A stretch of DNA of 64,000 nt from an uncultured Actinomycetes bacterium. GTDB taxonomy: Bacteria; Actinomycetota; Thermoleophilia; Gaiellales; JAICJC01. Below are positions 4,479 through 62,404 of the stretch, piece by piece. Under the pieces are notes generated by a model. The model did no database searches and was not told the origin of the DNA. It saw nothing but the letters and a program-made list of their open reading frames with translations. Where the stretch lies: assembly GCA_963729195.1 (NCBI GenBank), contig CAVSNF010000024.1:293793-357792 (forward strand), written 5' to 3'. Position numbers and translations under genes: made by a program. How positions within the stretch are numbered: the stretch's first letter is position 1; the number at the start of each line of letters is the position of its first letter.

Positions 4479-5944
4479 GCGCTCGCCGCCCGCAGCGCCG
4501 GCGGCACCGGATCAAAGTCGATGGCCTGCTCCAGCGCGTGCGCGGCCGACAGGATGCGGTTCTCGGAGAAGGCGTTCCCGACCAGCTGCAGGCCCACCGG
4601 GAGTCCCTCGCTCAACCCCGACGGGATCGAGATTCCCGGTAGCCCCGCCAGGTTGACCGGCACGGTCAGGATGTCGCAGGCATACATCGCCCACGGATCA
4701 TCGATCCGCTCACCGATCCCAAACGCCACCGTCGGCGACGCCGGGGTGGCGATCAGATCGACCTGGGCAAATGCCTCCTGGTAATCGCGCCGCACCAGCG
4801 TGCGCACCCGCTGTGCGGTGCCGTAGTAGGCGTCGTAGTACCCGGCCGAGAGCACATAGGTGCCCAGCATGATCCGGCGCTTGACCTCCGACCCGAACCC
4901 GTGGGAGCGGGTGCGGCCGTACATGTCGATGATCGAGTCGCCGGGCTCCTCCAGCCGCAGCCCAAAGCGCACACCGTCGAACCGCGCGAGATTGGCCGAG
5001 GCCTCTGCCGGGGCGATCAGGTAGTAGGCCGGCAGCGCGTGCACCGCGTGCGGCAGGGCGATCTCACGGACAGTGGCGCCGAGACCTTCGGCCTTGGCGA
5101 TGGCAGCATCGAACGAGGCGCGCACCCCCGGTTCCACCCCCCGCTCGAGCTGATCGGTGGGGACGCCGATCACCACGCCTCGGAGATCCTCCGCGTCGGG
5201 CACCACGATCGGCTCGGGCAGCGGCACCGAGGTCGAATCGCAGGGGTCGTGGCCGGCGATCACACCCAAAAGCAAGGCCGCGTCACGCACCGTCAGCGCA
5301 AACGGACCGATCTGATCGAGCGAGGAGCCGAACGCAATCAGGCCGTGCCGAGACACCGCCCCGTAGGTCGGCTTGAGGCCAACCACGCCGCACAGCGCGG
5401 CCGGCTGGCGGATCGAGCCGCCGGTGTCGGTACCCAATGCGATTGGCGCCAGCCCCGCAGCGACCGCTGCCGCCGATCCGCCGCTGGATCCTCCCGGCAC
5501 GGTGGTCACGTCCCACGGGTTGTGGGTGGGCCCGAAGGCGGAATGCTCGGTCGACGAGCCCATCGCGAACTCGTCCATGTTGGTCTTGCCCAGGGAGATC
5601 AGCCCGGCGTCGTTGCCCCGCTGCACCGCCCCGGCGTCGTACAGCGGGCGGTGCCCGGCCAGGATCCGCGATCCCGCGGTCGTCTCCTCCCCCCGCGTGC
5701 AGAGGATGTCCTTGTAGGCGATCGGGACTCCCTGCAACCCCGAGCGGCCGTCGCGATCGAATCTGGATGCCGCCTCGATCGCCGCATCGGCGCGCGTGCG
5801 CACGTAGGCATTCAGCTCGCCGTTTCGCTGCTCGATCGCATCGAGGTAGGCGGACACCAGCTCGTGGCATGAGATCTCGCCCGAATCGAGCAGCGCGACA
5901 CTGCGCTCGACGGTCAGACCCAGGGTGTCGATTGCCGCGGTCAT
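4475..5944 (-). CDS. gatA: Asp-tRNA(Asn)/Glu-tRNA(Gln) amidotransferase subunit A
   Basis: Start at internal ATG 5944 (aa 90 of the 578-aa track ORF): MTAAIDTLGLTVERSVALLDSGEIS... Amidase signature GGSSGGSAAAVAAG...GTDTGGSIRQPAA. 489 aa. Confidence 0.95.
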   Translation of the reverse strand: MTAAIDTLGLTVERSVALLDSGEISCHELVSAYLDAIEQRNGELNAYVRTRADAAIEAASRFDRDGRSGLQGVPIAYKDILCTRGEETTAGSRILAGHRPLYDAGAVQRGNDAGLISLGKTNMDEFAMGSSTEHSAFGPTHNPWDVTTVPGGSSGGSAAAVAAGLAPIALGTDTGGSIRQPAALCGVVGLKPTYGAVSRHGLIAFGSSLDQIGPFALTVRDAALLLGVIAGHDPCDSTSVPLPEPIVVPDAEDLRGVVIGVPTDQLERGVEPGVRASFDAAIAKAEGLGATVREIALPHAVHALPAYYLIAPAEASANLARFDGVRFGLRLEEPGDSIIDMYGRTRSHGFGSEVKRRIMLGTYVLSAGYYDAYYGTAQRVRTLVRRDYQEAFAQVDLIATPASPTVAFGIGERIDDPWAMYACDILTVPVNLAGLPGISIPSGLSEGLPVGLQLVGNAFSENRILSAAHALEQAIDFDPVPPALRAASA

Positions 5945-6224
5945 GCCGGAGGCACCCGAAATGCGCCCTGCTCTGCTTCGGGCGCGTTGCTCAGCACCTC
6001 GTCCAGCGGCCATGACGGCCGCACCCGGTCGGGTCGGGTGACGTTTGTCGAGATCGAGCGCGTGCGCGGTCGGCTCGACTCCCTCGAGCTCCAGACCCGA
6101 CAGCGCCGCGACGTGCTCGAGGATGCTCGAAAGCTGCTCGGTGGCGCGATCGACCTCGTCCTCGGTCAGCGACAGGCGCGCCAAGCGCGGCGACGTGCAG
6201 AACGTCTTCACGGGAGATTGACAC
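5941..6224 (-). pseudogene. gatC: amidotransferase subunit C, frame-disrupted as written (two +1 insertions)
   Basis: GTG 6224 gives MSISREDVLHVAAL. Next frame gives ARLSLTEDEVDRATEQLSSILEHVAALSGLELEGVEPTAHALDLD. Next frame gives [34 protein letters not shown], with TGA 5941-5943 overlapping the gatA ATG. Extra bases appear to lie in CC 6181-6182 and TTT 6044-6046. Confidence 0.85.
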
Positions 6225-6269
6225 GGCGCCAGAATAGTCGAGCGGCCGCGGAGCGGGATCAGGAGCGGA

Positions 6270-6503
6270 TCAGTTGGAGCAGGAGCGAGTCTTCTTGGTC
6301 AGGGCACCACGGTGTACGCCGTTGGCCTGTTTTCCCTTGTCGCCTTCGGTGACCTCGAACTCGACCCGCTGGCCTTCCGCCAGGGTCTTGTACCCCTCGC
6401 CCGCGATCTCCGAAAAGTGCACGAACACGTCATCACCCCCGTCCTGCTGGATGAAGCCGTAGCCCTTCTCATTGCTAAACCACTTGACGGTGCCTTCTGC
6501 CAA
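6270..6503 (-). CDS. cold-shock protein (CspA family)
   Basis: [30 protein letters not shown] (RNP1/RNP2 motifs). TTG 6503 preferred, since GGGAGGG lies about 7 nt upstream. The tail [21 protein letters not shown] is longer than typical Csp proteins. Confidence 0.9.
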
Positions 6504-6599: not shown

Positions 6600-7453
6600 C
6601 TAACGCGGTCGGCGTGCCTCTGCGGCGGTCAGGGTGTTGGCCATCAACATCGCGATCGTCATCGGCCCGACACCGCCGGGAACCGGCGTGATCGCGCCCG
6701 CAACCTCGCTTGCAGAGGCAAATTCGACGTCGCCGACGAGTCCGGCGTCGGTGCGGTTGATGCCCACGTCGATGACCGTCGCCCCCGGCTTGATCATGTC
6801 GCCGGTGATCATCTCGGGTCGGCCCACGGCCGCAACCACGATGTCGGCCCGGCGGATCACCGCAGGCAGGTCGCGCGTGCGCGAGTGGCAGATGGTGACA
6901 GTCGCGCTCTCGTGCAGGAGCAGCAGCGCGACCGGCTTTCCGACGATGTCCGAGCGTCCCACCACCACCGCATCGGCGCCCTCGAGGGGCACTCCGGTGC
7001 GTTTCGAGCAGCTCCAGCACACCGGCCGGGGTGCAGGCGCGCAGCCCGGGCTGTCCCGAGACCAGCAGACCCACGTTGACCGGATGAAACCCGTCCACGT
7101 CCTTGGCCGGGATCGAGCCGATCGAGCACCTGCTTGAAGTCGAGCCCGGCGGGGAGCGGTGCCTGCACCAGGATGCCGTCGACACGGTCATCGGCGTTCA
7201 TTCGGTCGACCATTGCAAGCACATCGGCCTGACTCGAGGTGGCCGGCATCGGTTCGTGGAACGAGACCATTCCGGCCTCTTCGCAGGCGCGAATCTTGTT
7301 TCGCACGTACACCTGCGAAGCCGGGTCCTCGCCGACCAGAACGGTTACCAGACCGGGTTTGTGGCCTGTGCGTTCGGTGAAAGCGCGGACCCGTTCGGCC
7401 ACGTCGGCCCGCACTTCTGCCGCCACAGCGGCGCCGTCAATAATCGTTGCCAT
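6600..7453 (-). pseudogene. folD: bifunctional methylenetetrahydrofolate dehydrogenase/cyclohydrolase, frame-disrupted as written (two +1 insertions)
   Basis: ATG 7453 MATIIDGAAVAAEV...[20 protein letters not shown], then frame hop near GGG 7109-7111 to [40 protein letters not shown]. Second hop near GG 6996-6997 to [26 protein letters not shown]...[19 protein letters not shown]. Minus-strand frames run 1>0>2. Confidence 0.9.
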
Positions 7454-9190: not shown

Positions 9191-10021
9191 ATGACCTATA
9201 GCGTCCGCAATATCGTGATCGCCGTCGTTTTGGCGGTACTCGCGGCGGTGCTGGTGATCATGTACACCAGCAACGCCCAGAAGCAGGCCACCAGTGGCCA
9301 GGAGAATGTCACTGTCCTTGTTGCCAAGACCGACATCGCTCCGGGCACCAGTGTGTCCGACGCGATCACAGCGGGCGCGTTTGAGACGCGGTCCGTCGTG
9401 TCCAAGGACGTTGTCCCGGGCGCACTGAACTCGGTCAACTCGCTCAACAAGGATCTTGCTTCCACCGGCACCATCGCCGCCGGAGCACAGGTAACCGCGA
9501 CGATGTTCTCCCAGTCGCAGCAGAACCCGATCGTGACTCAGATCAGCGGTGTCGATCGAGCTCTCCAGTTCTCGTTGAATGCCAACCGGGTGCTCGGCGG
9601 CACGCTCAAAGCCGGCGACCATGTTGACATCCTCTGGTCGGGCACGATTCATCCGACCGGCAACGACAGCAAGTTCGGTGACACCCTTGTCAGCCGGGCA
9701 CTGTTCCTGAACGTGCCGATCCTCTCGACCTACGACTCCGGTGCCGCCTCTGCGGCCCTGACCGCTGACGGCCAGGCCGCCAACGGTGGTGGCTCGAGTG
9801 ACGGTACCGCGGGGTCGGTGTGATCATCAAGCTGCCGCAGACCCAGGTTGCCCCGTTCCTCCTGGCGCTGCAGCAACGGCGGTGTGTGGTTCGCTCTGCG
9901 GCCCGCCACCGGTGCCCAGGATTCACCGATCGTTCTGACCACCGCGTGCACTCTGATCTCTGCTGGCCTCACCGCCAAGCAGGTTCACCATGACGTTCCG
10001 GCCTGCGTTGGTGGGAAGTAA
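9191..10021 (+). pseudogene. cpaB: Flp pilus assembly protein CpaB/RcpC, frame-disrupted near the 3' end
   Basis: ORF 9191..9823 has a TM anchor (IVIAVVLAVLAAVLVIMY), SAF-like VTVLVAKTDIAPGTSV and LKAGDHVDILW. The conserved C-terminus continues in other frames: VIIKLPQTQVAPFLLALQQ (from 9820), then GVWFALRPATGAQDSPIVL...VGGK. TAA 10019-10021 overlaps the cpaE ATG (TAATG). Confidence 0.8.
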
Positions 10022-11238: not shown

Positions 11239-12675
11239 ATGTCGCTTCAATCGCGCATCCAGGTTGCCGTCACCGACGGCACCGAAGAGACTGCTTCGGA
11301 GTCGAAGCAGCAGTTCGCGCCCGAGCGCTCATCGGCTGCGGCTGACCCCTTCGCCGAACTGAAGACGCGGGTCCACCGGGAGATCATCCCCCGGCTCGGA
11401 CCCCGCGTATTCAACGGCGAGACCAGCGACGAGGATCTGGAGTCCAAGGTCACGGAGGTCGTGACCGAGCTGCTGGCTGTCGAGAAGACGCCGCTCACGC
11501 GTCAAGAGCGGCAGGACATCATCAGCCAGATCACGGACGACATCCTGGGCTACGGCCCGCTGGAGCCGTTCCTGCGCGATGACTCGATTACGGAAGTCAT
11601 GGTCAACGACCACAAGACGATCTACATCGAGCGCCACGGCAAGATCACCCGCACCAACGCACAGTTCGTCGACGAGGCGCATCTGCTGCGCATCATCGAC
11701 AAGATCATCAGCCGCATCGGCCGGCGCATCGACGAGTCGTCGCCGTATGTGGACGCGCGCCTGCAGGACGGCTCGCGTGTGAATGCCATCATCCCGCCTC
11801 TGGCGGTGCGCGGTTCCACTCTCACCATCCGAAAGTTCCGTCGCGACCCGTTCGTGATGGCCGACCTGATCAAGTTCGGCACGCTCACCCACAAGTCCGG
11901 GCAGTTCCTGGAGGCGTGTGTGCGAGGCAAGCTGAACATCCTGATCTCGGGTGGTACCGGTTCCGGTAAAACCACGACCCTGAACGTGCTCTCGGCCGCG
12001 ATTCCGTCGGACGAGCGCATCATCACGGTCGAGGACGCGGCCGAGCTCCAGCTCAAGCAGGAGCATGTGATCACGCTCGAGTCCCGCCCTGCCAACATCG
12101 AGGGCAAGGGACAGGTCACCATCCGCGACCTGGTTCGTAACACTCTGCGTATGCGCCCCGACCGCATCATCGTCGGGGAGTGCCGTGGTGCCGAGGCCGT
12201 GGACATGCTCCAGGCCATGAACACCGGCCACGACGGCTCGCTCACGACCGTCCATGCAAACAACCCGCGCGACGCCCTCGCCCGTACCGAGACTCTGGTA
12301 CTGACCGCCGGCGTGGATCTGCCCCTCCGGGCTATCCGCGAGCAGATCTCAAGCGCATTCGACCTGATCGTTCAGGTATCACGCCTGGTCGACGGCACCC
12401 GCCGCATCACCCACATCACCGAGGTGCTGCGGATGGAGTCCGACATCGTCACGCTCCAGGACATCTTCCTGGCCAAGCCGATCGAAGACGGCGCCGCCAA
12501 CCGCGACTCCGGGCATCGCCTGCTGGGGCCGCTGAGCTGCACCGGCGTCAAGCCGAGCTTCCTGGACAAGATGGCATCAAACGGCGTCAACCTCCCGCCG
12601 AACTTCTTCCAGGATGAGGCGGGAGACCACAGTGCCGCCGCAGCCGGGATCTTCGGGCGGGCGGTAGGGCAGTGA
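11239..12675 (+). CDS. cpaF: CpaF/TadA secretion ATPase
   Basis: Intact 478 aa. Walker A GGTGSGKTT, Walker B/Asp box IIVGECRGAEA, His box GHDGSLTTVHAN. Confidence 0.95.
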   Translation: MSLQSRIQVAVTDGTEETASESKQQFAPERSSAAADPFAELKTRVHREIIPRLGPRVFNGETSDEDLESKVTEVVTELLAVEKTPLTRQERQDIISQITDDILGYGPLEPFLRDDSITEVMVNDHKTIYIERHGKITRTNAQFVDEAHLLRIIDKIISRIGRRIDESSPYVDARLQDGSRVNAIIPPLAVRGSTLTIRKFRRDPFVMADLIKFGTLTHKSGQFLEACVRGKLNILISGGTGSGKTTTLNVLSAAIPSDERIITVEDAAELQLKQEHVITLESRPANIEGKGQVTIRDLVRNTLRMRPDRIIVGECRGAEAVDMLQAMNTGHDGSLTTVHANNPRDALARTETLVLTAGVDLPLRAIREQISSAFDLIVQVSRLVDGTRRITHITEVLRMESDIVTLQDIFLAKPIEDGAANRDSGHRLLGPLSCTGVKPSFLDKMASNGVNLPPNFFQDEAGDHSAAAAGIFGRAVGQ

Positions 12676-14564
12676 TGCGCACCCGCTTGGCAATCTGCGT
12701 CGCGCTGGTGGCCGCTCTCGCGGTCACCGGCACGGCCGCGGCCGCAGGCCCGGCACCGACGATCCAGTCGATCAACACCAGCAAGTTCCCCGAGGTGTCG
12801 GTCAACGTCAAGTCGGCTACTGCCACGGCCGGAACTCCGACTGTGGTGGTGACCGAGAACGGACAGCCTGCGACCGGCGTCAACCTGAATACGACCGACA
12901 ACGTGCCGGCCATCGCGCTGCTCACGGATACCTCACGGAGCATGAGTGGAAAGCCGCTGGCTGACGCCAAGGCTGCAGCCAACAGCTTCATCTTCAGCCA
13001 GTCTCCCGACGCGGTGTTGGCGGTGTACGGATTCGGCGACACGGCGTATGTGAGCGCTCCGTTCCCGTCCGACCGCACCGACGCGTCACTTGCCATCAAT
13101 CAGCTCGCGATCGCGGCCAAGCCCGGTACCGCGCTGTATGCCTCCGTCGTCCAGGCCGCGAACGATCTGGCCAAGCAGAACGAGGGCAAGCACGTGATCC
13201 TGCTCATGACCGATGGCCACTCGGCCAACGATCACGCCACCCTGGCCGCAGGCCAAGGCGGCTGCGCAGGCGGCCCACGCGACCATCTATGCGGTCACGA
13301 CCTCGACCGACCAGGCCGCGCTGGCACCGTTGAAGGCCCTTGCCTCCAGCACGGGTGGACAGATGATCCCGGTAACCGATTCGATCCGCTCTGAAGGCTG
13401 CCTACAAGACGATCGCGGCCTCGCTGAATGCGAGCTTCGCATTCTCCTATCACAGCCTGGTGCCTCCGGGTAAGCCGATCAACCTCGAGCGTTTCAGCGT
13501 GAACGGCTCGGCGCCTGCCACCGACACGGTCAAGGCTCCCGGTACGTACGCTGCTCCACCACCTCGGGCGGAAGCTCGGTTCCGGCCAACGCGGCCGGTC
13601 GTGCCGCCGATCGCCGGCGTCGTCGCCCTGTTCGTGCTGGCGGGCGCGCTGATCGTGCTCTCCTCCAAGCCTGCGGTCATGGTCGGCAAGCGGATCGCTC
13701 CGCACACCGAGCAGAAGAAGCAGGTCGTGGTGGTCGCTCCCGGCCAGGAGATCCCCAAGATCAGCATCCTTCACCAGCTGTACGTGGCGACGGAGAAGAT
13801 CGCGGGCTCGTTCAACTACTGGAAGCGGATCTCGTTCCGCCTCGAGCAGGCGAACCTGCCGCTGCGAACCGCCGAGGTCGTCTACATCCAGATGGGCAGC
13901 GCAATCCTGCTGGCCGCGATCGCGAGCCTGCTGTTCGGGCTCGGCGGCATCGGCGGGCTGATCGCCCTGGTGATCGGCGCCCTGATTCCCTGGATGTACG
14001 TCAAGATCATGGCGAAACGACGGCTGAATCTGTTCGAGACTCAGCTGCCGGAGACCCTGATCACGCTGGCTGCCTCGCTCAAGGCCGGTCACGCCTTCAA
14101 CTCGGCGCTGAACAGCGTCGTCAAGGAAGGCGTCGAGCCGACCTCGACCGAGCTGTCCCGCGTGTCCTCGGAAATCCAGCTGGGGATGCCTTCCGAGGCT
14201 GCCCTGGAGGCGATGGCGACAGCGCATGGACTCGACCAACTTCGGGTTCGTCGTGATGGCCGTCAACATCCAGCGCACCGTCGGCGGCAGTCTCGCCGAG
14301 ATCCTGGACATGGTGGCCGACACGGTCCGCCAGCGACAGCAGTTCACCCGCAAGGTGAAGGCGCTGACGGCTCAGGGCCGGATGTCGGCCTACGTGCTGC
14401 TGGGAATGCCGTTCATGATGGGCCTTGCGATCTTTGCCCTCAACCAGGCGTACATCACGATCCTGTTCACAGAGACCGCCGGCCAGATGATGATCGCCGG
14501 AGCACTGTTCATGATGCTGATCGGCGGGCTCATCATCAAAAAGATCGTCTCCTTCAAGGAGTAG
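12672..14564 (+). pseudogene. tadB: vWA-domain / TadB (T2SS-F family) fusion protein, frame-disrupted as written (three +1 insertions)
   Basis: Frames run 0>1>2>0. Signal peptide plus vWA with MIDAS LLTDTSRSMSG...LLMTDGHSAND. After ~13245: QAKAAAQAAHATIYAVTTSTDQAALAPLKALASSTGGQMIPV. After ~13390: KAAYKTIAASLNASF...PPGKPINLERF, a Pro-rich linker, TM IAGVVALFVLAGALIVL and the platform domain LPETLITLAASLKAGHAF...IQLGMPSEAALEAMA. After ~14215: MDSTNFGFVVMAVNIQRTVGGSLAEIL... Confidence 0.8.
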
Positions 14565-25310: not shown

Positions 25311-25317
25311 GAGGTTC

Positions 25318-52758: not shown

Positions 52759-52814
52759 GCCGTCAACCGTACCCCGCGAAACGGACGCCCGCGGTGACGA
52801 GCTGTGCCGAGTGT

Positions 52815-53483
52815 CTACAGAAAGCCAAGCCGATCCAGCGGCCAATACACCACGAACGCCTTGCCGATGATGTTTCGTCGCGGCAGGAACCCCCACACGC
52901 GGCTGTCCTCGGAGTCGGCGCGGTTGTCGCCCATCATGAAGTACTCACCCTGGGGCACGTGATAATCGCCCTTGGACGATGTGTCGCGCGGGTGATGGTT
53001 GACGTACGGCTCGTTCAGCCGCTGGCAACCGACGTCCTTGCCGGTACAGATCGACACCACGCCTTTGCGGATCTGCACCCAGTCACCCGGCAGGCCGATG
53101 ATGCGCTTGATGTAGTTGACGCTCGCCTCGGTCTTGGCACCGAGAGACGGAATGTCTCCGTGCCCGGGCGGGTGAAAGACGATCACGTCTCCCCGGCGCG
53201 GCGGGTGCAGGTGGTAGATGAAGCGGTTGGCCAGCACCATGTCGCCGACCTTCAGTGTCGGCACCATCGACACCGTCGGGATCCGATAGGGCTTGATCAC
53301 CCAGCCCTGGACGACATACGCCAGACCGAACGCCACCGCCAGAATCACCAGCAGCTCCAGCACCGGATGCATGCCACGCTTCTTGGTGGGCTCCACCAAC
53401 GCGTCGTCGGGGAGAGCTTCGGGAGCCGCCGGCTGGGCCGGGAACTCTGGATCCACGGGTGCCCCCACGTCGGGGCCGGCCAC
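52815..53483 (-). CDS. lepB: signal peptidase I
   Basis: Intact 222 aa. TM anchor, IPTVSMVPTL (Ser), GDVIVFHPP, YIKRIIGLPGD (Lys), MMGDNRADSEDSR. Confidence 0.93.
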   Translation of the reverse strand: MAGPDVGAPVDPEFPAQPAAPEALPDDALVEPTKKRGMHPVLELLVILAVAFGLAYVVQGWVIKPYRIPTVSMVPTLKVGDMVLANRFIYHLHPPRRGDVIVFHPPGHGDIPSLGAKTEASVNYIKRIIGLPGDWVQIRKGVVSICTGKDVGCQRLNEPYVNHHPRDTSSKGDYHVPQGEYFMMGDNRADSEDSRVWGFLPRRNIIGKAFVVYWPLDRLGFL

Positions 53484-53824
53484 TATCGAGACTTCTCGCG
53501 TACCCGAGCCGCTTTGCCGACCTTGCCGCGCAGGTAGTACAGCTTGGCTCGGCTCACGTCACCGACAGCGGCGACGTCGATCTTCGCGATCTTCGGTGAG
53601 TGGAAAGGGAACGTGCGCTCCACGCCCACCCCGAACGACTGCTTGCGTACCGTGAACGTCTCGCGCACGCCCGCGCCCTGGCGGGCGATGCAGACGCCTT
53701 CGAAGACCTGAACGCGCTGGCGCTGGCCCTCGATCACCTTGAAGTGCACGCGCACGGTGTCGCCGGCTTTGAACTCGGGCAACTCGCGCAGCTGTCGGTC
53801 TTCGATATCGGAGATCACCGTCAT
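53483..53824 (-). CDS. rplS: 50S ribosomal protein L19
   Basis: Intact 113 aa. [47 protein letters not shown]...[11 protein letters not shown]. Confidence 0.97.
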
Positions 53825-53856
53825 GACCGACGCATGCTACCCGCTGCCCTGGGGGC

Positions 53857-54546
53857 TCACAAATCAGAACCATCTCTCATGCGGGACTGCGTCTCGCGCC
53901 ACTCGGCTACGCGACCGTGGTCGCCCGACAGCAGCACCTGCGGCACACCCCAACCCCGATACAGCTCGGGACGGGTGTAGTGCGGGTGCTCGGGTCGGCC
54001 GCCCATCGCCTCCGAGTAGGAGTCGTTGCGATGACTCTCCTCCTTGCCCAGCGCTCCGGGCAGCCGCCGCACCACCGCATCGATCACCACCATCGCCGCT
54101 AACTCGCCTCCCGACAGCACATACGGCCCGAGCGACAACTCCTCGGTGGCAACGTGCTCGTGGACACGCTGATCGAACCCCTCATACCGCCCGCACAGCA
54201 GCGTGAAGTCACCGCCCTCGGCGTAGGACACCGCAGCCTGTTCGGAGAACGTCTCACCCACCGGCGTCAACACCACCACCCGGCGCTGCTCTCGGATCTG
54301 CTCGATCGGCTCGGCATAGGCGGCCTCCAGGGCGGCGCACACCACGTCCACCCGGATCACCATGCCCGCTCCACCGCCATAGGGCGCGTCGTCGACCTGG
54401 CGGTAGTCACCCAGCCCCTGCTCACGCAGGTCGAAGATGCGAAGTTCCAGCGCGCCCGACTCCAACACGTTTCGCACCGGGCGCACCTCCCGCAGCCAGT
54501 CGAACTGGTTGGGGAAGAGCGTGAACACATCGATGCCGAGGCTCAC
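53857..54546 (-). CDS. trmD: tRNA (guanine37-N1)-methyltransferase
   Basis: Intact 229 aa. IDVFTLFP...DDAPYGGGAGMV...LLCGRYEGFDQRV...ELSLGPYVLSGGELAAMVVIDAVVR. Confidence 0.96.
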   Translation of the reverse strand: MSLGIDVFTLFPNQFDWLREVRPVRNVLESGALELRIFDLREQGLGDYRQVDDAPYGGGAGMVIRVDVVCAALEAAYAEPIEQIREQRRVVVLTPVGETFSEQAAVSYAEGGDFTLLCGRYEGFDQRVHEHVATEELSLGPYVLSGGELAAMVVIDAVVRRLPGALGKEESHRNDSYSEAMGGRPEHPHYTRPELYRGWGVPQVLLSGDHGRVAEWRETQSRMRDGSDL

Positions 54547-55058
54547 AGGAAGTCCTCACGCACGTCGATCCGGCGAGCGTACAGATCCACCTGCTCCACC
54601 ACGTCAGCGGCGAACGGCACCAGCACCGCGTCGCCCTGGCCGGCCAGTTCGAGCACGTCGTTGGCGGGATAGGCGTGCACCGTCATGACCGTCCCCAGCA
54701 AGCGCGCGCCGGAAAACACCTGACAGCCAATCAGGTCGATGTGGAAGTACTCGTCCTCGTCCGGCTCGGGCAGCGTGTCGGTGGGCACGCTCACCTCCGA
54801 TCCGCGAAGCGCCTCGGCCGCCTCCCGGGTGGACGCGATGCCGAGCCGCAGAATCGGCCGTTCGTCGGTGCCCCGTCGCTCGGCGATGACCACGTTGCGA
54901 CCTGCCACGGTGATCGGCGTGCCGGCTCGCAGCGGCACCGCGCCGCCGTGTCCCTCCAGCTTGAAGGCGCCGTCCAGCCCGTGCGGTCGCCCCACCCGGC
55001 CGACCACGATCTCGGCCGGCCGCCATGGACGCGGGCTGCTATTCGGCGATGTCGACAT
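54543..55058 (-). CDS. rimM: 16S rRNA processing protein RimM
   Basis: Intact 171 aa. IVVGRVGRPHGLDGAFKL... and a PRC-barrel C-terminus FHIDLIGCQV...LVPFAADVV. Confidence 0.92.
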   Translation of the reverse strand: MSTSPNSSPRPWRPAEIVVGRVGRPHGLDGAFKLEGHGGAVPLRAGTPITVAGRNVVIAERRGTDERPILRLGIASTREAAEALRGSEVSVPTDTLPEPDEDEYFHIDLIGCQVFSGARLLGTVMTVHAYPANDVLELAGQGDAVLVPFAADVVEQVDLYARRIDVREDFL

Positions 55059-55272
55059 GCACGCGACGGCCGCTGCGCACCGCGGCTGCCTTGACGATCG
55101 TGCGCAGAGCCCGAGCGATGCGGCCCTGCTTCCCGATCACCTTGCCCAGATCCTCCTGGGCGACGTGCAGCTCCAGCAGCAGGTCACCGGACTCCGACTC
55201 GGACTGGTCGACGCGCACCTGATCGGGATGTGCGACCAGCTGCCGTGCGAGGTGAGCGAGCAGCTCGTCCAT
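55039..55272 (-). CDS. KH-domain RNA-binding protein (YlqC/UPF0109 family)
   Basis: Intact 77 aa. ...LELHVAQEDLGKVIGKQGRIARALRTIV. Confidence 0.9.
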   Translation of the reverse strand: MDELLAHLARQLVAHPDQVRVDQSESESGDLLLELHVAQEDLGKVIGKQGRIARALRTIVKAAAVRSGRRVHVDIAE

Positions 55273-55280
55273 CGCCGGTG

Positions 55281-55520
55281 CTACACGCCGGCGAGCTTGA
55301 GCAGCTTCGCCACCGTCTCGGTCGGCTGAGCTCCCTTGCTGAGCCAGTCGCGAGCGCGCTCCGTATCGATGTCGATCAGCGACGGATCGGGCTGCGGGTT
55401 GTACCGGCCGATCGTCTCGAGCGTGCGCCCGTCGCGAGGGTTTCGCGAGTCCGCGACAACCACCCGATAGACCGGATTCTTCTTGGAACCATGCCGCGCT
55501 AGGCGGATCTTGACAGCCAC
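55281..55520 (-). CDS. rpsP: 30S ribosomal protein S16
   Basis: Intact 79 aa. [42 protein letters not shown]. Confidence 0.97.
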
Positions 55521-55521
55521 A

Positions 55522-56853
55522 TTACCTCCGTTGCATTCCCGGAAACTGAGGCATCTTACCGCGGCCGACCTGTTTCATCATCCGCTGCACCTGTTTGAAC
55601 TGCCCCAGCAGCTGGTTGACAGTCTGAACATTGGTGCCACTGCCGGCTGCAATCCGGCGGCGGCGAGAGCCGTCGATGATCCGGTGATTTCGGCGCTCGG
55701 CCGGTGTCATGGCCAAAATGATCGCCTCCACCCGGTCGAACTGGCGCTCGTCCACCTTCATGTTCTTGACCTGGCGGCCAACGCCGGGAAGCATCCCCAA
55801 AAGCCCGGCCATCCCCTGCCCCGAGGTCATCTTCTTGACCTGCCGCAGCTGCTGCAGGAAATCCTCGAGCGTGAAGTCGGCCGACCGCAGCTTGGCCTCC
55901 ATCTCGGCGGCTTCCTTCTCGTCGAACTGCTCCTGGGCGCGCTCGATCAGACTCATCACGTCGCCCATGCCGAGGATCCGCGACGCCATCCGGTCGGGAT
56001 GGAACGGCTCCAGCTGGTCGAGCTTCTCGCCGACGGACACGAACTTGATCGGCTTGCCGGTGACCGCCCGCACCGCCAGGGCGGCGCCGCCGCGTGCGTC
56101 GCCGTCCAGCTTGGTCAGGATCACACCGTCGTAGTCGACCGCCTCGGCGAACTGCTGGGCGACGTTGACCGCGTCCTGGCCGGTCATCGAGTCGAGCACC
56201 AGCAGCACGTTGTGCGGCTTGGTGGCGGCCTTGATCCGCACCAGCTCGTCCATCAGGTTCTCGTCGATGTGCAGCCGGCCGGCGGTATCGACGATCACCG
56301 TGTCGCGCCCCTGGGCCTTGGCCTGCTCGATGCCCCACACCGCGGTCTCGACCGGGTCGGCGTCGGTGCCGCGATCGAACACCGGCACCTGCAGCGACTT
56401 ACCCAGCGTCTGCAGCTGCTGGATCGCAGCCGGCCGGTAGACGTCGCAGGCCACCATCGCCGGGGTCTTCTTCTGCTTCGCCAAAAGCCGTGCCAGCTTG
56501 CCGCTGGCGGTGGTCTTGCCCGAGCCCTGCAGGCCGGCCATCAGGATCACGGTGGGCGGACGGTTCGAGAACGAGAGCCCGCTGCCGGCGCTTCCCATCA
56601 GCTCGGTCAGCTGCTCGTGGACGATCTTCACGACCTGCTGGCCGGGAGTCAGGCTGTCCAGCACCTCAGAGCCCATCGCCCGCTCCTTGACGCCGGCCAC
56701 GAACTGCTTGACCACCGTGAAGTTGACGTCGGCCTCCAGCAGCGCCAGCCGGATCTCGCGCATGGCGGCGTCGATGTCCTGCTCGCTGAGGCGGCCCTTG
56801 CCCTTGAGGCCGTCGAGAGTCGCCCCGAGGCGATCTGAAAGTGAGTCAAACAT
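55522..56853 (-). CDS. ffh: signal recognition particle protein Ffh (SRP54)
   Basis: Intact 443 aa. MFDSLSDRL..., [31 protein letters not shown], and a Met-rich M-domain. Confidence 0.97.
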
Positions 56854-56881
56854 GGCTACAGCGTAGACCGTCGGGCGCCAG

Positions 56882-56912
56882 GTGAATAACGGTGCCTGGC
56901 ACCGTTATTCAC
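56882..56912. repeat. AT-rich palindromic repeat, copy 2
   Basis: GTGAATAACGGTGCC-T-GGCACCGTTATTCAC, identical to copy 1 (25067). Lies in the ftsY-ffh intergenic region. Confidence 0.9.
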
Positions 56913-56926
56913 GACAGACGTCCGAG

Positions 56927-56959
56927 GTGAATAATTGGTGCCTGGCACCAATTATTCAC
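56927..56959. repeat. AT-rich palindromic repeat, copy 3 (variant with compensatory arm changes)
   Basis: GTGAATAATTGGTGCC-T-GGCACCAATTATTCAC with 16-nt perfect arms. CG/CG in copies 1-2 is replaced by TTG/CAA on both arms. The ftsY stop codon (GGT GAA TAA on the minus strand, 56952-56954) lies inside an arm. Confidence 0.9.
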
Positions 56960-57914
56960 CGAAGAGGGCGCGGGCGAAGTCGGTGGGGTCGAAGGGGCGC
57001 AGGTCTTCGACACCTTCGCCGACGCCGATCAGCTTCACCGGGGTGCCCAGCTCGTGGGCGATCGCCAACGCGATGCCGCCCTTGGCGGTGCCGTCCAGCT
57101 TGGTCAGCACCAGTCCGGTGACATCCACCGCCTCGGTGAACAGCCGCGCCTGCTGAAGCCCGTTCTGGCCGGTGGTGGCGTCGATCGTCAGCAGCACCTC
57201 GTGCGGCGCATCCTCGATCCGGCGACCGATCACGCGGTGGATCTTGCCGAGCTCCTGCATCAGATGATCCTGGGTGTGCAGCCGTCCAGCCGTGTCGATG
57301 ATGACCACGTCACGCCCTCTGGCCTCGGCAGCTGCGACCGCGTCGAAGGCGACCGCAGCCGGGTCGGCTCCCGACTCGGACGAGACGAAATCAGCGCCGG
57401 CCCGCTCCGCCCACGTCTCCAGCTGCTCACCGGCCGCCGCCCGGAAGGTGTCCCCGGCGCCGATCACGCAGGTCTTGCCGGCCTCGCGCAGATGCCAGGC
57501 GATCTTGCCGATCGAGGTGGTCTTGCCGGTGCCGTTGACGCCGGTCATCAGAATCACCGACGGCGTGTGGGTGACGTCGATCCGGGCATCGCCTTCGGGA
57601 GTCATCAGCTCGGCCACGATCTCGGTCAGCCGGCCGGTCAGATCGGCCGACGTGGTCAGCCGCCCGGCGGCGGATTCGGCCTCCAGCCGCTCGATCACGG
57701 TCACCGTGGCGGGCACGCCGCAGTCGGCTGCGATCAGCGCCAGCTCCAGCTGCTCCCACACATCCGGGTCGGCCGGATTCAGCACCACTCCGGCAAGCTG
57801 CTGGCTCATCGCCCGGCGGCTGCGGCCGATCGACTCGCGCAGCCGGGAGAACATCCCGCCCGACCGAGCCTCGGGCTCGGGTTCGGGCGGCGCCTCCTCG
57901 CCGGTGTTGAACAT
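56952..57914 (-). CDS. ftsY: signal recognition particle receptor FtsY (short N-terminus + NG domain)
   Basis: ATG 57914 within the 512-aa track ORF. MFNTGEEAPPEPEPE...GVNGTGKTTSIGK...DTAGRLH...LTKLDGTAKGGIALAI. The upstream 190 codons of the track ORF are antisense to the Ldh_2 gene. Confidence 0.9.
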   Translation of the reverse strand: MFNTGEEAPPEPEPEARSGGMFSRLRESIGRSRRAMSQQLAGVVLNPADPDVWEQLELALIAADCGVPATVTVIERLEAESAAGRLTTSADLTGRLTEIVAELMTPEGDARIDVTHTPSVILMTGVNGTGKTTSIGKIAWHLREAGKTCVIGAGDTFRAAAGEQLETWAERAGADFVSSESGADPAAVAFDAVAAAEARGRDVVIIDTAGRLHTQDHLMQELGKIHRVIGRRIEDAPHEVLLTIDATTGQNGLQQARLFTEAVDVTGLVLTKLDGTAKGGIALAIAHELGTPVKLIGVGEGVEDLRPFDPTDFARALFGE

Positions 57915-57953: not shown

Positions 57954-58878
57954 GTGCGTGTGACGACGGTTCCGCTCACCGACCTGCGCACCGCCATGAC
58001 CGAGCGGGCGCTGGCTCTCGGCTTTTCGCCCGCCGACGCCGACCTGCTGGTCGACCACTTCGTGGACGCCGAGATGCGCGGCGCCACCGGCCACGGGGTG
58101 GAGCGGCTGCGGTGGCTGGCAGGGCGGCCGGGGCTCGACCCGACTCCCCGGCTCACCCTCGTATCGCGGGATGAGGGCCTGGCCCGCTATGACGCCGCGC
58201 GGATCGGTGGGATACACGGCGCTGGCCGCCGCCATCGACGCCGAGCTGGACCACCCTCCGGCGGGGGCGCGAGTGGTCGTGGTCGGCGACTGCTTCCCCA
58301 CCGGCCGGCTCGGGTACTTCGCAGCCCGCGCGGCCCGCCGGGAGCTTGTGTGCCTGCTGACCGCGACCTCCACCGCGCGCATCTCCCACCCCTCCGGCGG
58401 TGGGCCGCTTGTGGGCACCAACCCGCTCTGCCTCGCACTCCCCGGCGATCCCGAACCCGACGTGATCGACGTCTCCATGGGCCGCGTCACCTACGGCGCG
58501 GTGCTGAAGGCGATCGCCACCGGAGTGCCGCTGCCGGAAGGCTCGGCGGTGACGCGCGACGGCCACCCCACCACCGACCCCGGCCAGATCGAGGCCGACG
58601 CCGCCGGGGTGATGCCGTTCGGTGACGATCAGGCCTACAAGGGATTTGCGCTGGCGCTGATGGTGGAGACGCTCTGCCGCAGCCTGGCCGGCGAGCACGG
58701 CCACGCCGCCGTGGCGCTGCTGGCAGCCCCGGTGGCCGCCCCGATGGGAACGATTCGGGCAGCAGCCGGTGACAACCGCCTGCCCGGAGACCACTCTGCC
58801 GATCATCACCGCGCCAGCCTGGCACGGGGAGAGCTCGAGCTACCCGACGACCTCTGGCGCTGGCTCCAGGCTGTCTGA
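57954..58878 (+). pseudogene. Ldh_2-family (malate/L-lactate/sulfolactate dehydrogenase type 2) oxidoreductase; one +1 frameshift
   Basis: GTG 57954 ...LVDHFVDAEMRGATGHGVERLRWL...LARYDA. Hop at ~58195 to GSVGYTALAAAIDAEL...GGGPLVGTNPLCLALPG...DVSMGRVTYG...MPFGDDQAYKGFALALMVE. Confidence 0.7.
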
Positions 58879-61800
58879 CATGCGCCGCGACAGCACCCGC
58901 GACTCCCCGTCGCCCGCCATGCTGACGCCGTAGAGCACGTCTGCCACCTCCATCGTGCGCCGCTGATGGGTGATGACGATGAACTGGGCGCGCGACTGGT
59001 AGGCCCGAAGCAGCGACAGGAACCGCTCGATGTTGGCATCGTCCAGCGCCGCCTCGACCTCGTCCAGGACGTAGAACGGCGACGGCTTGGTCAGCATCAG
59101 CGAGAACTGGAATGCGATCGCCGTCAGCGACTTCTCGCCGCCCGAGAGCAGCGACAGCGACTCGATGCGCTTGCCGGCAGGCCGCACCTCGAGCTCAATC
59201 CCCGGCTCGGGCCGCTCCGACGGGAGCTGATCCTCGGAGTCCTCGGCCGGCTCCTCGCCGTCCTCGGCCGAGCGTACCGGCGCCTCGACCACGTCGTCGG
59301 TCAGCCGCAGCCGGCCGCTGCCGCCGGGAAAGAGCGTGCCCACGGTCTCGGAGAAGTGGTGCGCCACCTGCGTGAACGTCTCGTCGAAGCGGGCATCGAT
59401 CGTCTGGGTCAGATCCCGCACCAGGCTGCGCAGCTCCTTGAGCGAGCGATCCAGATCATCACACTGGGTCGAAAGCTCGTCCACGCGCACCTTCTCGGCC
59501 TCATACTCCTCGGCAGCCAGCGGATTGACCGCTCCCAGGCTCTCCCGGCGCCGCTCGAGCCGCTCCAGGCGGGCTGCCAATGCCGCGGATTCGTCCGGCT
59601 GCATCGGCTGCTCGGGCTCGGACAGCTCCAGCTCATGGGCGGCGGCGATCTCTGACCGGCGGCGGCCGAGCTCCGACACCCGCTCGGCCGATCGGCCCAG
59701 CGCAACCTCGATCTCGGTGGCGGCAGCGGTCGCCGCTCGCGATGCGGCCTGCTCGGCGGCCTCCAGCTCGGCACAGGCCTGCAGCTCGGTGGAGAGCTCG
59801 GACGCCCGCCGCTCGATCGACTCCACTCCGGCCCGGGCCGGGGTTCGAAGCTGGTTGGCTGCCTCGGCTGCCAGCGCCAGCTTGGCGGAAATCGCCTCGC
59901 ACTCCGGCGCCAGGTCAGCCGCGATCTCGCCCAACTCGACCGCCCGCAGCGCAGTCGCGGTGGCCTCGGCGGCCGCCGCCTGCAAGCCGTTCGAACTCCG
60001 CCCGTCCACGGGCCACGCGCTCGCTCAGGCCGGCCACCTGGGCGGCGATCACGGCACTCTGCTCGGCCATCTCACGCCGCGCCGCTCGAGTCCCGAATGC
60101 TGCTCCTCGGCCGAGGTCGAGGCGGCTCGACGCTCGGCCTCCAGCGCTTCGTGGGCTTCCAGGTCGGACGTCAGCGCCGCGGCCCGGGCGCGCTCAGTCT
60201 CGAGGTCTCGCTCGGCCAGGTCGCGAGCGGCGTCGCACCGGGCAAGCTCATCGGTCAGCTGCTCACGCCGCAGGCCCAGTGCGCGGGCGGCTTCGCGGGC
60301 GGCAGTATCGGCGCTAACGGCGTCGGCCTGGGCTGCACGGGCAGCACCGGCAGAGGCTGCAGCGGCCGACGCAGCGGCTGCGGCCTGCTCGGCCTGGGTG
60401 GCGGCGGCCTTCATGGCGACCGCGATCTCGTCCATGTCCACCTTGGTGCGGTCGCGCTCGGCCCGCGCGCTCAACCACGCCGCTTCGCCGGCATCGGCTG
60501 CGCGCCAAAACTCTCCGCGGTCGGCATCCACGCCCTCGCCCGACGGTGTGACCGCCACTCCTGAGCGCACCTGGGAGAGGTCGTCCACCAGCCAGACGCC
60601 CGCGATCAGCCGCCCGACGGCCGGATCGGTCACGGTGGCGACCTCCAGCAGCGGCCGCGCACCCGGGGCCGGGGCCTTGCCCGCAGCCGGCAGCTCAGCG
60701 CCGGCCAGGATCACAGCCAGCTCGCCTTCAGCGCCCCTCAGCAGCTCGATGGCCTCCGCCACCTTGTCGGCCACCACGGCGCCGGCACGCCACCCCAGCG
60801 CCGCCGCCACGGCCCGCTCGTAGCCCTGCTCGGCTTCGATCCCGGCAACCACCAGCTTGGCGCCCGCTGCCTGCAGAGAGCGGGCCGCCGGTGGCAGTCC
60901 CTCACCCCGCTCGAGCGCGCGGTCGAGACCGGCCAGCCGCGTCGCCGCCAGCTCACTGCGGTGGGTGAGCTCGTCCAGGGCCGCGCGAGCCGCCCGGTCG
61001 CTCTCGGCGGCAGTCGCCTCGGCCTCGGTGGCTGCGGTGGCCGCGGCCGTCGCAGCCGCGAGCTCCGCGGCCGCCGCCTCGCCTGCCGTGGCTGCCGCCT
61101 CGGCCAGGGCACCGGCGCCCTCGAGATCACGAGCGGTGGTCTCGGCACGGACGGTGAAGATCTCCATCTGCTTGGTGTGCGCCGCCAGCCGCCCGGCCGA
61201 CTGCTCCGCCTCACGGCGGGTGGTGGCCACCTGGCCCTGCGCGTCGGCCAAGGCGCGGCGGGCATCGAGTGCGGCTGTCAGCGCCGCCTCGGCCTGTGCC
61301 GTCAGCGCATGCTCGGCCTCCACGTCACCGACACCCAGCCGCTCGACCTCCAACGCAGCCTGGTCGGCGGCCGCAGATGCCTCGAGCGATTCCGCGGTGA
61401 ACCGAGCGGCGTCGGAGGCCAGCCGCTCGGCGGCGGCCGTTCGCCGCCCCCTGGCCCGATCCAGCGCCGCCGCCCCCTGGGTGATCCGGCCTGCCTGGAG
61501 ACCGAGACGCTCGCGGGCGGTCTCGAACGCGTAGAACGAATGCGCAGCGCGTTCCTGAGCGGCCGCCAGACCGGTCAGCTCGGTCTCGGCCAACGCGCGC
61601 CGGGCAGCCAGCGCCTCCAGCTTCTTCTCAACCGCCGCATGCGTCTGGGCGGCCGCCGCACGACGGCCGTCCAGGCCCGCACTGGAGCGCTGTTCGGTGA
61701 GCATCTCCGAGGAGAGCAGGGTGACCCGGCCGACGGCGATCTCGCCGGCCAGCTTGGCCGCCCGGTCGGCCGCGGTGGCCTGGATCGACAACGGCCGCAG

Positions 61801-62404
61801 CCGGGCTTTGACCTCACGCTCCAGATCGCGGGCGCGCTCCAGCTCGGCGGCCACCCGCACCATCTTGGTCTCGGCCCGCGCCCGGCGTCGCTGGTACTTG
61901 CCCAGCCCGGCCGCCTCCTCCACGAACCGCCTGCCGCTCGTGCGGCTTGGACAGGAGGATCTCCTCGACCTTGCCCTGGCCGATCACCGAGTGCATCTCG
62001 CGGCCGAGGCCGGTGTCGGCCAAGAGCTCCAGCAGGTCGAGCCGTCGCACCCGTGCACGGTTGATGAAGTACTCGCCCTCGCGCTCGCGATGCAGGCGGC
62101 GCATCACCGAAACCTCGTCGAACTCGAGCGGCAGGGTGCCGCAGGAGTTGTCGAGCACCAGCTCGACCTCGCACACCCCGGCGGGCGGGCGGGCATCCGA
62201 CCCGGAGAACAGCACGTCCTGGCCCAGCGGCGCGCGCAGCTGGGCCGGCGCCTGGGTCGCCATCGCCCACTGGAGGGCGTCGGCGATGTTCGACTTGCCG
62301 CTGCCGTTGGGCCCGACGATCACCGCGATCCCCTCGTGGAACTGCAGCTCGACGCTGCCGGGGAACGATTTGAAACCTCGAATTCTGATGCTCTTCAGAT
62401 ACAA
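58840..62404 (-). pseudogene. smc: chromosome segregation protein SMC, frame-disrupted as written (>=3 insertions)
   Basis: ATG 62404 MYLKSIRIRGFKSF...VGPNGSGKSNIADAL (Walker A)...HSVIGQGKVEEILLSKPHER. Hop at ~61920 to FVEEAAGLGKYQRRR, then a long Ala-rich coiled coil and hinge (VVAGIEAEQGYERAVAAALG). Hops at ~60090-60015. C-terminus: LSLLSGGEKSLTAIAF (signature), FYVLDEVEAALDDAN (Walker B). Confidence 0.9.

Follow-up and report, generated by a model that had tools for sequence, protein, structure and literature searches.

Genes at the locus and positions of the frame breaks

The DNA analyzed here, a stretch of 64,000 nucleotides (the window), comes from an uncultured soil actinobacterium related to Gaiellales/Thermoleophilia, whose closest genomes are the Microflora Danica MAGs L001 (MFD02134.bin.3.227) and L002 (MFD08988.bin.2.30). 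Orthologous proteins drawn from about 90 related loci (L and P numbers below denote loci and proteins) were aligned to the window DNA with our own frameshift-aware dynamic-programming script, and each event was then placed by DNA alignment to close relatives. Between positions 5,950 and 62,404, this census revealed 50 single-base frame events specific to the window, distributed over 23 genes.

The gene gatC (5950..6227, minus strand) carries extra bases at about 6050 and at 6186, as shown by protein-to-DNA alignment with the intact GatC of L070 (JGI) and L071 (a short-read k141 contig); in an 11-way DNA alignment, they are missing from 10/10 and 9/10 relatives, respectively, and the extra C at 6186 is common to L157, an assembly from another sample. 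The cold-shock protein gene csp (6270..6503, minus strand) has an extra base at 6311, missing from 10/10 relatives, by which the normal C-terminus found in the Csp of L069, L070, and L071 is replaced by a longer tail. In folD (6606..7453, minus strand), 10/11 and 11/11 relatives lack the extra bases at 7006 and 7112, and FolD is intact (283-287 aa) in L070, L071, L158, and L160-L163. The gene cpaB/RcpC (9191..10009, plus strand) lacks a base at about 9809-9816 and then gains one at about 9874; both events were found by three-frame translation against the CpaB of L070 and L071 and are supported by 10/10 relatives, and the out-of-frame stretch holds a TGA stop at 9821-9823. The vWA-tadB fusion gene (12672..14561, plus strand) has extra bases at 13248, 13384, and 14219, a −1/+1 pair at 13557/13610, and a patch of net in-frame +3 at 13486-13497, and is intact (624-630 aa) in L070, L071, L157, L158, L160, L161, and L164. 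Protein-to-DNA alignment placed one extra base in yjbQ (15501..15888, plus strand) at about 15723, relative to 4/4 reference loci. The gene of a diguanylate cyclase with Pfam GGDEF and GAF domains (GAF-GGDEF; 16030..18100, minus strand) has extra bases at about 16195, 16286, 16404, 17766, and 17823, the last two being backed by 10/10 protein and 4/4 DNA references.

Further along, an aldehyde dehydrogenase gene (Pfam Aldedh; 25310..26807, minus strand) contains extra bases at 25783 and 25886 relative to 18/18 reference loci, including 2/2 short-read loci, and the gene of a PLP-dependent enzyme (Pfam PALP; 26848..28108, minus strand), called thrC-like in the initial annotation, contains extra bases at 27348 and 27833 relative to 39/40 and 40/40 loci, including 11/11 short-read loci. 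The gene initially annotated as rlpA-like (28373..29130, minus strand), for which no Pfam match was found, has extra bases at about 28811 and at 29057 that are missing from both L001 and L002, the former being backed by 32/33 protein references. In a hypothetical gene (29070..30078, plus strand), a break of the +1 type lies near 29759, with a shift congruent to +1 in 36/37 reference loci; its position is approximate, and an 11-bp difference from L001 adjoins it. Four extra bases are found in xerC (32955..33852, minus strand; 33423, 33484, 33654, and 33705), and one in a beta-propeller protein gene (Pfam DUF5122/Rax2; 34131..35087, minus strand) at 34631, which L073 and L001 lack. The GT-C-like/DUF6541-like membrane protein gene (35565..37622, plus strand) has six (35880, 36486, 36626, 36839, 37050, and 37246); the protein is intact, with 684 aa, in a Logan short-read contig (P0241) and four long-read contigs, and eight fragments of it come from six long-read contigs, including P0332, the window's own last fragment. 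A small hypothetical membrane protein gene (37630..38039, plus strand) is open once the extra bases at 37719 and 37933 are removed. A search with a chimeric repaired protein returned homologs for GT-C only; neither xerC nor the small membrane gene yielded any. The ClC chloride channel gene (Pfam Voltage_CLC; 38043..39402, plus strand) has an extra base at 38691 relative to 3/3 relatives, a hypothetical gene (39429..40007, minus strand) has one at about 39862, and the sensor-module gene of the initial annotation (39963..41205, plus strand), which gave no Pfam match, has one at 40564. Further 1-bp differences at 39955-39986 were seen against a single sister genome, and there either sequence may carry the change.

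In the last part of the window, a glycosyltransferase family 2 gene (second copy; 45693..46843, minus strand) has an extra base at about 46283, which is private to the window in a 5-way DNA alignment (protein references P0382 and P0383), and another family 2 gene (47259..48267, minus strand) has one at 47850, a shift needed by 5/5 members of a 336-aa cluster, including Logan P0381. The NAD-dependent epimerase gene (48267..49146, minus strand) lacks a base at about 48969 and has extra bases at 49040 and 49107, and the same three shifts are needed by 7/7 full-length Logan or short-contig proteins (P0364-P0376). The Ldh_2-family dehydrogenase gene (57954..58875, plus strand) has an extra base at 58198, needed by three full-length Logan proteins (P0356, P0359, and P0362). 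In smc (58843..62404, minus strand), extra bases at 59988 and 61932 accompany a missing base at 60081, and the out-of-frame stretch contains a stop at 60049; three contigs, L065 and L155 among them, encode an intact SMC of 1,187 aa, and in L063, L064, and L066 it is split differently.

Two regions served as unbroken controls. The block at 49189..57914 (minus strand; dprA, comM, UPF0102, rnhB, lepB, rplS, trmD, rimM, KH, rpsP, ffh, and ftsY) holds no event and gave full-length protein matches; within it, the Logan short-read contig L072 is 99.73% identical and gap-free over 54255-55352. The other block (30081..32952, minus strand) encodes an EF-G-like GTPase and a FliA-like sigma factor. The EF-G and ComM of the window gave no exact protein match, the gene caller having evidently taken other start codons, as for DprA, which is 318 aa on record as against 361.

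Number and direction of the frame breaks

The 50 events comprise 46 extra bases (+1) and four missing bases (−1; sign test, p = 4.5e-10), the latter being those in cpaB (~9809-9816), vWA-tadB (13557), the epimerase gene (~48969), and smc (60081), each paired with an extra base 52-93 nt away. The initial annotation had counted about 45-50 breaks in more than 20 genes, nearly all +1, and had regarded roughly equal numbers of +1 and −1 events in a full census as the refuting outcome; our counts agree with the former, and the +1 excess stands. Its counts per gene were reproduced for gatC (2), folD (2), vWA-tadB (3 net), GAF-GGDEF (5), xerC (4), GT-C (6), aldehyde dehydrogenase (2), and the thrC-like/PALP gene (2), as were the single breaks in yjbQ, ClC, Ldh_2, the beta-propeller gene, and the sensor gene. 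The rlpA-like gene, credited with one break, has two, the csp event was absent from its list, and the −1/+1 pair in vWA-tadB lies beyond its count. For cpaB, the epimerase gene, and smc, it had left a choice between a −1 event and two closely spaced +1 events, and the −1 alternative was found in all three. For the anti-sigma gene near 23600, no homolog or Pfam match was found. The stretches described as free of breaks (1-6000, 10021-12675, 30078-32955, and 49186-57914) proved to be so in the census, with only two 1-bp differences, both intergenic (32148 and 56894).

Several candidates were dropped: 6522, which is common to the window's nearest relatives and lies inside the csp leader; 13486/13497, which is net +3 and in frame; 42420/42460, which is net +15; and 45903, which is present against one lineage only. 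Comparison of ORF lengths revealed no frameshift of the window in 42.2-45.5 kb, and a scan of JGI metagenomes with the YdeI-like protein, carried out for 42-45.5 kb, gave relatives of at most 67% identity, lacking synteny. A GC3-phase continuity test for the polarity of 1-bp differences from L155 was abandoned as too noisy near close events and gene ends.

Comparison with short-read contigs and sister assemblies

The initial annotation had proposed independent short reads as a check. The closest short-read contigs are L073 (MEGAHIT, 97.6% identical) and L074 (SPAdes, coverage 3.3, 98.9% identical), and in these near-identical assemblies the extra base is missing at all 5/5 covered sites (33423, 33484, 33654, 33705, and 34631). 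Their only gaps relative to the window are these five sites and one intergenic A-run, and the XerC of L073 is intact (298 aa) and 99.7% identical to the repaired protein of the window. Short-read DNA of at least 97.6% identity covers 5/50 sites, and the other 45 were judged against relatives of 85-96% identity. In the 90%-identity protein clusters of GT-C, SMC, Ldh_2, epimerase, XerC, and DprA, all Logan members are full length or nearly so, and a few short-contig ENA/JGI members are partial (P0375, P0386, and P0422); the fragments cut short by frameshifts originate from long-read contigs of 10-742 kb.

The window's own fragments in these clusters (P0332, P0348, P0349, P0358, P0367, P0388, and P0417; 99-100% identical, with no shifts) belong to one contig of 741,595 bp held by NCBI and ENA, and the readable sister contigs held by both are all Microflora Danica Flye contigs. 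That project assembled Nanopore reads only, with Flye (--meta --nano-hq), one Medaka round, and no short-read polishing, and its authors noted low coding density in low-coverage MAGs (PMC12313526). From the technology of these sister contigs, we infer that the window's contig is likewise a Nanopore-only metagenome assembly. The sister contigs break other genes, other positions, or none, and the breaks are private to the window's assembly except for that at 6186 (L157). In L065, ComM is whole, as is SMC, whereas both are split in L063, L064, and L066. The gat-folD-tad region is undamaged throughout in L160 and L161, whereas in L159, L162, and L164 it is shredded. Within the same 12-kb region, the ratio of insertions to deletions ranges from 13:1 (L156) to 10:23 (L159) across sister contigs.

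Clustering and sequence context of the breaks

The breaks had been described as clustered, with long stretches free of them, and statistical analysis showed clustering beyond chance. Fifteen gaps between events are shorter than 150 nt against 6.1 expected (p = 3.5e-4), the longest gap measures 9,091 nt (p = 0.008), and the variance-to-mean ratio in 1-kb bins is 1.6 (p = 0.004). Clustering occurs at two scales, about 50-140 nt and 1-9 kb, and the larger patch size is comparable with the median read N50 of 6.1 kb in the Microflora Danica project (PMC12313526), a suggestive agreement. Only 8/46 extra bases have an identical neighboring base, 38/46 (83%) lie outside any run, and runs of at least four bases contain none (0/46); therefore, classic homopolymer error is not the cause. 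No common motif was recognized by eye in the contexts of the insertion sites. Mismatches beside the insertions are inconsistently enriched and are given no weight here: the enrichment is significant relative to L001 and L064 and disappears relative to the closest short-read contigs, against which the insertions at the five sites are clean, with neighboring bases unchanged.

Origin of the breaks

Taken as a whole, the roughly 50 breaks are very probably errors of the assembled consensus rather than mutations, and the affected genes intact and functional in nature; biologically, the frame breaks are not a real feature. The initial annotation had suspected a consensus or base-calling artifact and regarded its own pseudogene calls as unreliable, and the short reads, the sister assemblies, the purifying selection described below, and the lack of nonsense codons all support this. 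It had also argued from the insertion-only pattern to an artifact. That conclusion is supported, but this step of the argument is weaker than it was put, since sister contigs of the same pipeline show both signs and the sign pattern alone is not decisive.

Local read depth may have been too low for correction by Flye and Medaka, so that errors would persist, and low depth would also leave error-rich and error-free patches at the scale of reads, about 6 kb. For a sizeable share of the sites, two co-occurring strains might differ by a SNP, both alleles of which the consensus would keep side by side; because keeping both alleles can only add a base, we propose this as a source of the +1 excess. 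In a test restricted to orthologous positions, 7/22 insertions in regions with several close relatives show in tandem the two alleles by which relatives differ at a SNP, for example AAT/AGT giving AAGT at 33423 and ATGGT/ATCGT giving ATGCGT at 33654, whereas simulated random insertions score 4-8%. The allele-union sites are 6186, 7112, 13486, 17823, 33423, 33484, and 33654. This allele-union signature suggests that the consensus was built from mixed strains. It covers about a third of testable sites at most and leaves out the four missing bases and their pairing, and sister contigs of the same pipeline show both signs, as does L159, so that strain mixing is one possible cause of the 46:4 ratio. 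An earlier version of the test, in which 12-mers were matched anywhere in the loci, was discarded as non-specific, every site being positive.

Within the same class of artifact, purely random residual read noise at very low depth, with no mixing of strains, is a serious possibility that falls somewhat short of an even chance. The short bursts and kilobase patches, the error-rich sister contigs with both signs, and the clean insertions at the five sites accord with it, and soil Nanopore assemblies have been reported to contain more frameshift errors than HiFi ones (PMC13087279). However, noise of this kind does not predict a ratio of 46:4 over about 56 kb, which necessarily involves many reads, nor that two independent assemblies agree in the extra base at 6186. 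It also does not predict how often the inserted base matches the other allele of a neighboring SNP, at a rate 4-8 times that of simulated insertions.

Selection on the broken genes

In the broken genes, third positions account for 66-72% of differences from sister long-read contigs and 83% of those from L073, and the non-synonymous shares are 26-33% and 17%, respectively; no selection would give, by our own estimate, roughly 33% and 70% or more. Third positions hold 33/35 differences in xerC, 29/30 in the beta-propeller gene, and 43/48 in GAF-GGDEF, and the genes with four to six breaks (xerC, GAF-GGDEF, and GT-C) reach 77-94%. The 23 repaired genes contain no internal stop codons and are free of larger deletions and of multi-base deletions that disrupt the frame. 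These results show that the coding sequence beneath the breaks is under normal purifying selection. The broken genes are somewhat less conserved than the unbroken ones in most comparisons (non-synonymous 0.26-0.33 vs. 0.06-0.19), whereas the comparison with L002 goes the other way (0.29 vs. 0.34).

Genuine pseudogenisation, in which ongoing genome decay would have left actual insertions of one base in over 20 genes, is very improbable. The deposited sequence does contain the breaks, the broken genes are slightly less constrained, and accessory genes (GT-C, glycosyltransferases, and GGDEF) are broken more often than core translation genes, all of which decay could produce. On the other hand, essential single-copy genes (gatC, folD, smc, and xerC) are affected, the lesions are almost uniformly single-base insertions rather than the mixed spectrum of decay, and substitutions remain about 70% third-position. 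Moreover, none of the five testable insertions occurs in short-read contigs of 97.6-98.9% identity; were they real, 820 bp would hold three indels for six substitutions. The breaks of sister assemblies are just as dense but differ from those of the window.

Recoding by programmed +1 ribosomal frameshifting or transcriptional slippage at the break sites, superficially in keeping with the near-uniform +1 direction, is more improbable still, as the sites share no motif by eye and mostly lie outside runs, orthologs (2 to 40 loci per site) read straight through, a single gene would need up to six shifts, and a +1 mechanism cannot accommodate four −1 events with stops between the paired events. Equally hard to credit are real +1 insertions throughout the genome that the cell tolerates or decodes via efficient +1 frameshift suppression or RNA-level correction, which the short reads exclude directly at 5/50 sites only and against which the private breaks, the lack of a shared motif, the differing sisters, and the −1 events with stops argue indirectly at the other 45.

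Comparison with known systems and implications

Classic Nanopore error is an error of homopolymer length with an excess of deletions. Like the indel errors revealed in Nanopore-only assemblies by IDEEL-type tests, the breaks of the window are single-base indels that split conserved genes, are private, and do not appear in short-read assemblies, and such errors occur more often when the metagenome is a complex one from soil or the bin has low coverage (PMC12313526; PMC13087279; see also PMC9262707). The window differs from the classic form in that 83% of its extra bases lie outside runs, insertions exceed deletions, and about a third of the testable insertions resemble both alleles of a strain SNP in tandem. 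Pseudogenes of decaying genomes are known from Mycobacterium leprae and recently host-restricted pathogens. The window resembles these in its many frameshifted genes, some of them normally essential, but lacks nonsense mutations, larger deletions, and relaxed selection, and its lesions are not common to populations of 98-99% identity, while sister assemblies differ. Programmed +1 frameshifting, exemplified by prfB, likewise moves the frame +1 along translation, but the window has no conserved site or signal, its orthologs contain no shift, and several shifts fall in one gene.

As errors of the consensus, the breaks falsely split about a third of the genes over 56 kb of a deposited MAG contig, so that inference of pseudogenes, gene loss, metabolism, or pangenome content from this contig is unsafe, and the same warning extends to similar low-depth Nanopore-only MAGs. 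If confirmed on reads, the allele-union pattern would be a recognizable and correctable signature of a strain-mixed consensus and would account for the +1 excess that polishing leaves in some contigs.

Frame breaks and their distribution in the window

The reading-frame breaks of the window were shown to be consensus errors private to this assembly. Many frame switches within genes were visible in a GC3 frame plot, and they were counted with a purpose-written protein-to-DNA aligner permitting frameshifts, for which the open reading frames of every retrieved locus, and later curated gene calls, served as references. An event was taken as window-specific only when all or nearly all spanning reference loci agreed on it; one that appeared against just one reference was attributed to the latter, and positions were sharpened by DNA alignment to close relatives. 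The results revealed 50 window-specific events in 23 genes, comprising 46 extra and four missing bases, which bears out the claim of the initial annotation that nearly all breaks are +1 (sign test, p = 4.5e-10). The clustering it described was confirmed as well: 15 inter-event gaps fell below 150 nt where 6.1 would be expected (p = 3.5e-4), the variance-to-mean ratio of events was 1.6 (p = 0.004), and the longest event-free gap spanned 9.1 kb (p = 0.008). The four stretches first read as break-free proved to be so, and a search of 42.2-45.5 kb found zero frameshifts. Contact with an identical neighbouring base was limited to 8 of the extra bases, and none of the 46 lay inside a run of four or more.

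All the earlier per-gene counts were reproduced, apart from the following differences. The rlpA-like gene is indeed broken, but by two events rather than one, and csp carries a previously unlisted extra base at 6311. Junctions read as either one -1 or two +1 events turned out to be true -1 events in cpaB (-1 at 9809, then +1 at 9874), the epimerase gene (-1 at about 48969) and smc (-1 at 60081), and vWA-tadB holds an additional -1/+1 pair at 13557/13610. Every missing base has an extra base 52-93 nt away (pairs 9809/9874, 13557/13610, 48969/49040 and 59988/60081; P = 0.007 given the general clustering), so paired that the frame is regained after 17-31 codons. In both pairs checked, those of cpaB and smc, the out-of-frame stretch contains stop codons; these two pairs, at least, are therefore not functional compensations.

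Provenance of the window and its relatives

The window has a G+C content of 61-75% and carries gatCAB, folD, a tad/cpa pilus locus, ribosomal-protein genes and genes for an EF-G-like GTPase, xerC, ffh, ftsY and smc. When species-representative genomes, which do not include the window itself, were scanned with the EF-G-like protein, 62 loci were obtained; the closest belong to Microflora Danica (MFD) MAGs labelled "uncultured Actinomycetes" and the next to Gaiellales/Thermoleophilia MAGs. The nearest relatives in DNA, MFD02134.bin.3.227 and MFD08988.bin.2.30, were 93.6% and 94.7% identical, respectively. Seven truncated products of the window are on record (P0332, P0348, P0349, P0358, P0367, P0388 and P0417; 99-100% identical with zero frame shift), and cluster look-ups traced all of them to one 741,595-bp contig held at NCBI and ENA. 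Sister contigs of this kind were, where readable, all MFD Flye contigs. The MFD long-read catalogue is Nanopore-only, assembled with Flye 2.9.2 (--meta --nano-hq) and one Medaka round without short-read polishing, at a median read N50 of 6.1 kb, and its authors noted that coding density is low in MAGs of low coverage (PMC12313526).

The window also encodes tRNA Cys-GCA (15940-16012, plus strand), tRNA Gly-GCC (24938-25011, minus) and tRNA Trp-CCA (45569-45641, minus), the last two being islands of 92-100% identity within otherwise divergent relatives. Two tandem Flp pilin genes of 56 aa lie at 7652-7822 and 8012-8182 (plus); the first, indexed in 49 collection blocks, encodes an unchanged protein in at least 20 contigs at 85-95% DNA identity.

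Evidence that the extra bases are not real

Short reads, protein clusters, sister assemblies and selection together indicate that the extra bases do not exist in the organism. Two short-read contigs were retrieved by exact look-up of a 74-residue protein encoded beside xerC: a 2,980-bp MEGAHIT contig 97.6% identical to the window, and a SPAdes contig (coverage 3.3) 98.9% identical. In this independent comparison, which the initial annotation had proposed as a check, their gaps against the window were the five covered frameshift sites (33423, 33484, 33654, 33705 and 34631) and one intergenic A-run, and nothing else. XerC of the MEGAHIT contig is full-length (298 aa) and shares 99.7% identity with the window's protein after repair. 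Relative to the SPAdes contig, the window would have three single-base insertions alongside six substitutions over 820 bp, all within a conserved recombinase. A Logan short-read contig within a break-free stretch was 99.73% identical and gapless.

In the 90% identity clusters of GT-C, SMC, Ldh_2, epimerase, XerC and DprA, all Logan members were full length or nearly so, and the alignment of every full-length protein to the window called for identical shifts. The sources of the frameshift-truncated pieces were long-read contigs of 10-742 kb; a few partial proteins derive from ENA or JGI contigs of very short length. Contigs from other samples had the same genes unbroken or broken at other positions. 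SMC (1,187 aa) and ComM are whole in sister locus L065 and differently split in L063, L064 and L066; the gat-folD-tad region is fully intact in L160 and L161 and shredded in L159, L162, L164 and L069.

Once the extra bases were removed, the 23 genes contained no internal stops. Differences between the broken genes and their relatives were 66-83% third-position and 17-33% non-synonymous, with third-position counts of 33/35 in xerC, 29/30 in the beta-propeller gene and 43/48 in GAF-GGDEF, which is not expected of genes with four to six real frameshifts. Genuine pseudogenes are contradicted by this unrelaxed selection, by the absence of mixed lesions and by the lack of the lesions in near-identical populations. 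Programmed frameshifting is very unlikely, as neither a conserved site nor, on inspection by eye, a motif was found.

Sign and possible origin of the errors

The consensus errors resemble the familiar indel problem of long-read-only assemblies, which reportedly persists in soil Nanopore metagenomes (PMC13087279; PMC12313526), but differ from the usual ones in being non-homopolymer and in their strong +1 excess. Private 1-bp insertions and deletions numbered 7:2 for the window, 10:2 for L063, 6:1 for L064 and 3:0 for L065 in the right-hand region. In the left-hand region they numbered 9:1 for the window, 13:1 for L156, 11:4 for L164 and 5:1 for L165, with L158 (8:7), L162 (4:7) and L159 (10:23) richer in deletions; L156, L159, L162, L164 and L165 were compared over the equivalents of window 1669-13814. 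The insertion excess is common, but not universal, because the ratios of sister contigs span 13:1 to 10:23, and not constant even within one sample, because insertion-rich L064 and deletion-rich L159 belong to one assembly (ERZ25039577). The initial annotation was right to call an artefact, but the sign is not sufficient proof, given sister contigs of both signs.

In xerC, three of the window's four sites hold both alleles of a SNP dividing its close relatives (AAT/AGT to AAGT, AACCG/AAGCG to AAGCCG, ATGGT/ATCGT to ATGCGT). Across the orthologous positions of three regions with several close relatives, 7 of 22 insertions showed this pattern, against 4-8% of random insertions simulated elsewhere in those regions (p ~3e-4, our own estimate); additional local differences were also commoner at real than at simulated sites. 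At 6186 the window reads CCAAGCGCGG and its relatives CCAAG-GCGG or CCA-GCGCGG, and the extra C is common to the window and L157, a contig from another sample. At 13248, the alignment column that holds the extra base of the window also holds an insertion of L156's own. Both positions are recurrent error hot spots at strain-polymorphic positions. Sister species do co-occur in samples, ERZ25039488 containing three of these contigs. We infer that reads of co-occurring strains were piled up together and two alleles retained in adjacent columns, by which a sequence can only grow longer; this would account for part of the +1 excess. The remaining errors are probably ordinary low-depth noise, and the bursts of 50-140 nt and patches of 1-9 kb would fit low-quality read segments and depth fluctuation on the scale of read length.

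Other features and implications

The GT-C-like membrane protein (35565-37622, plus; six breaks, 684 aa repaired) has no Pfam match itself, and its distant homologues bear PF20176 (DUF6541); homologues above 40% identity belong, where the source names an organism, to Gaiellales-like MAGs or metagenome contigs. The Ldh_2-family gene (57954-58875, plus) is antisense to a long open frame (56955-58490, minus) extending ftsY upstream to 512 aa, versus 320 aa as called in relatives; the long frame is probably a high-GC antisense artefact. The 3' ends of the Ldh_2-family gene and smc (58843-62404, minus) overlap by ~33 nt. Relative to its sisters, the window has a 16-bp insertion and a 1-bp deletion at 42420-42460 (net +15, in frame, in a small hypothetical gene), and a private 49-bp deletion at 53875 and 23-bp insertion at 56936, both apparently intergenic.

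The tandem-allele insertions are a small methodological point. The breaks represent no real biological feature, and the pseudogene calls throughout the window are to be withdrawn.
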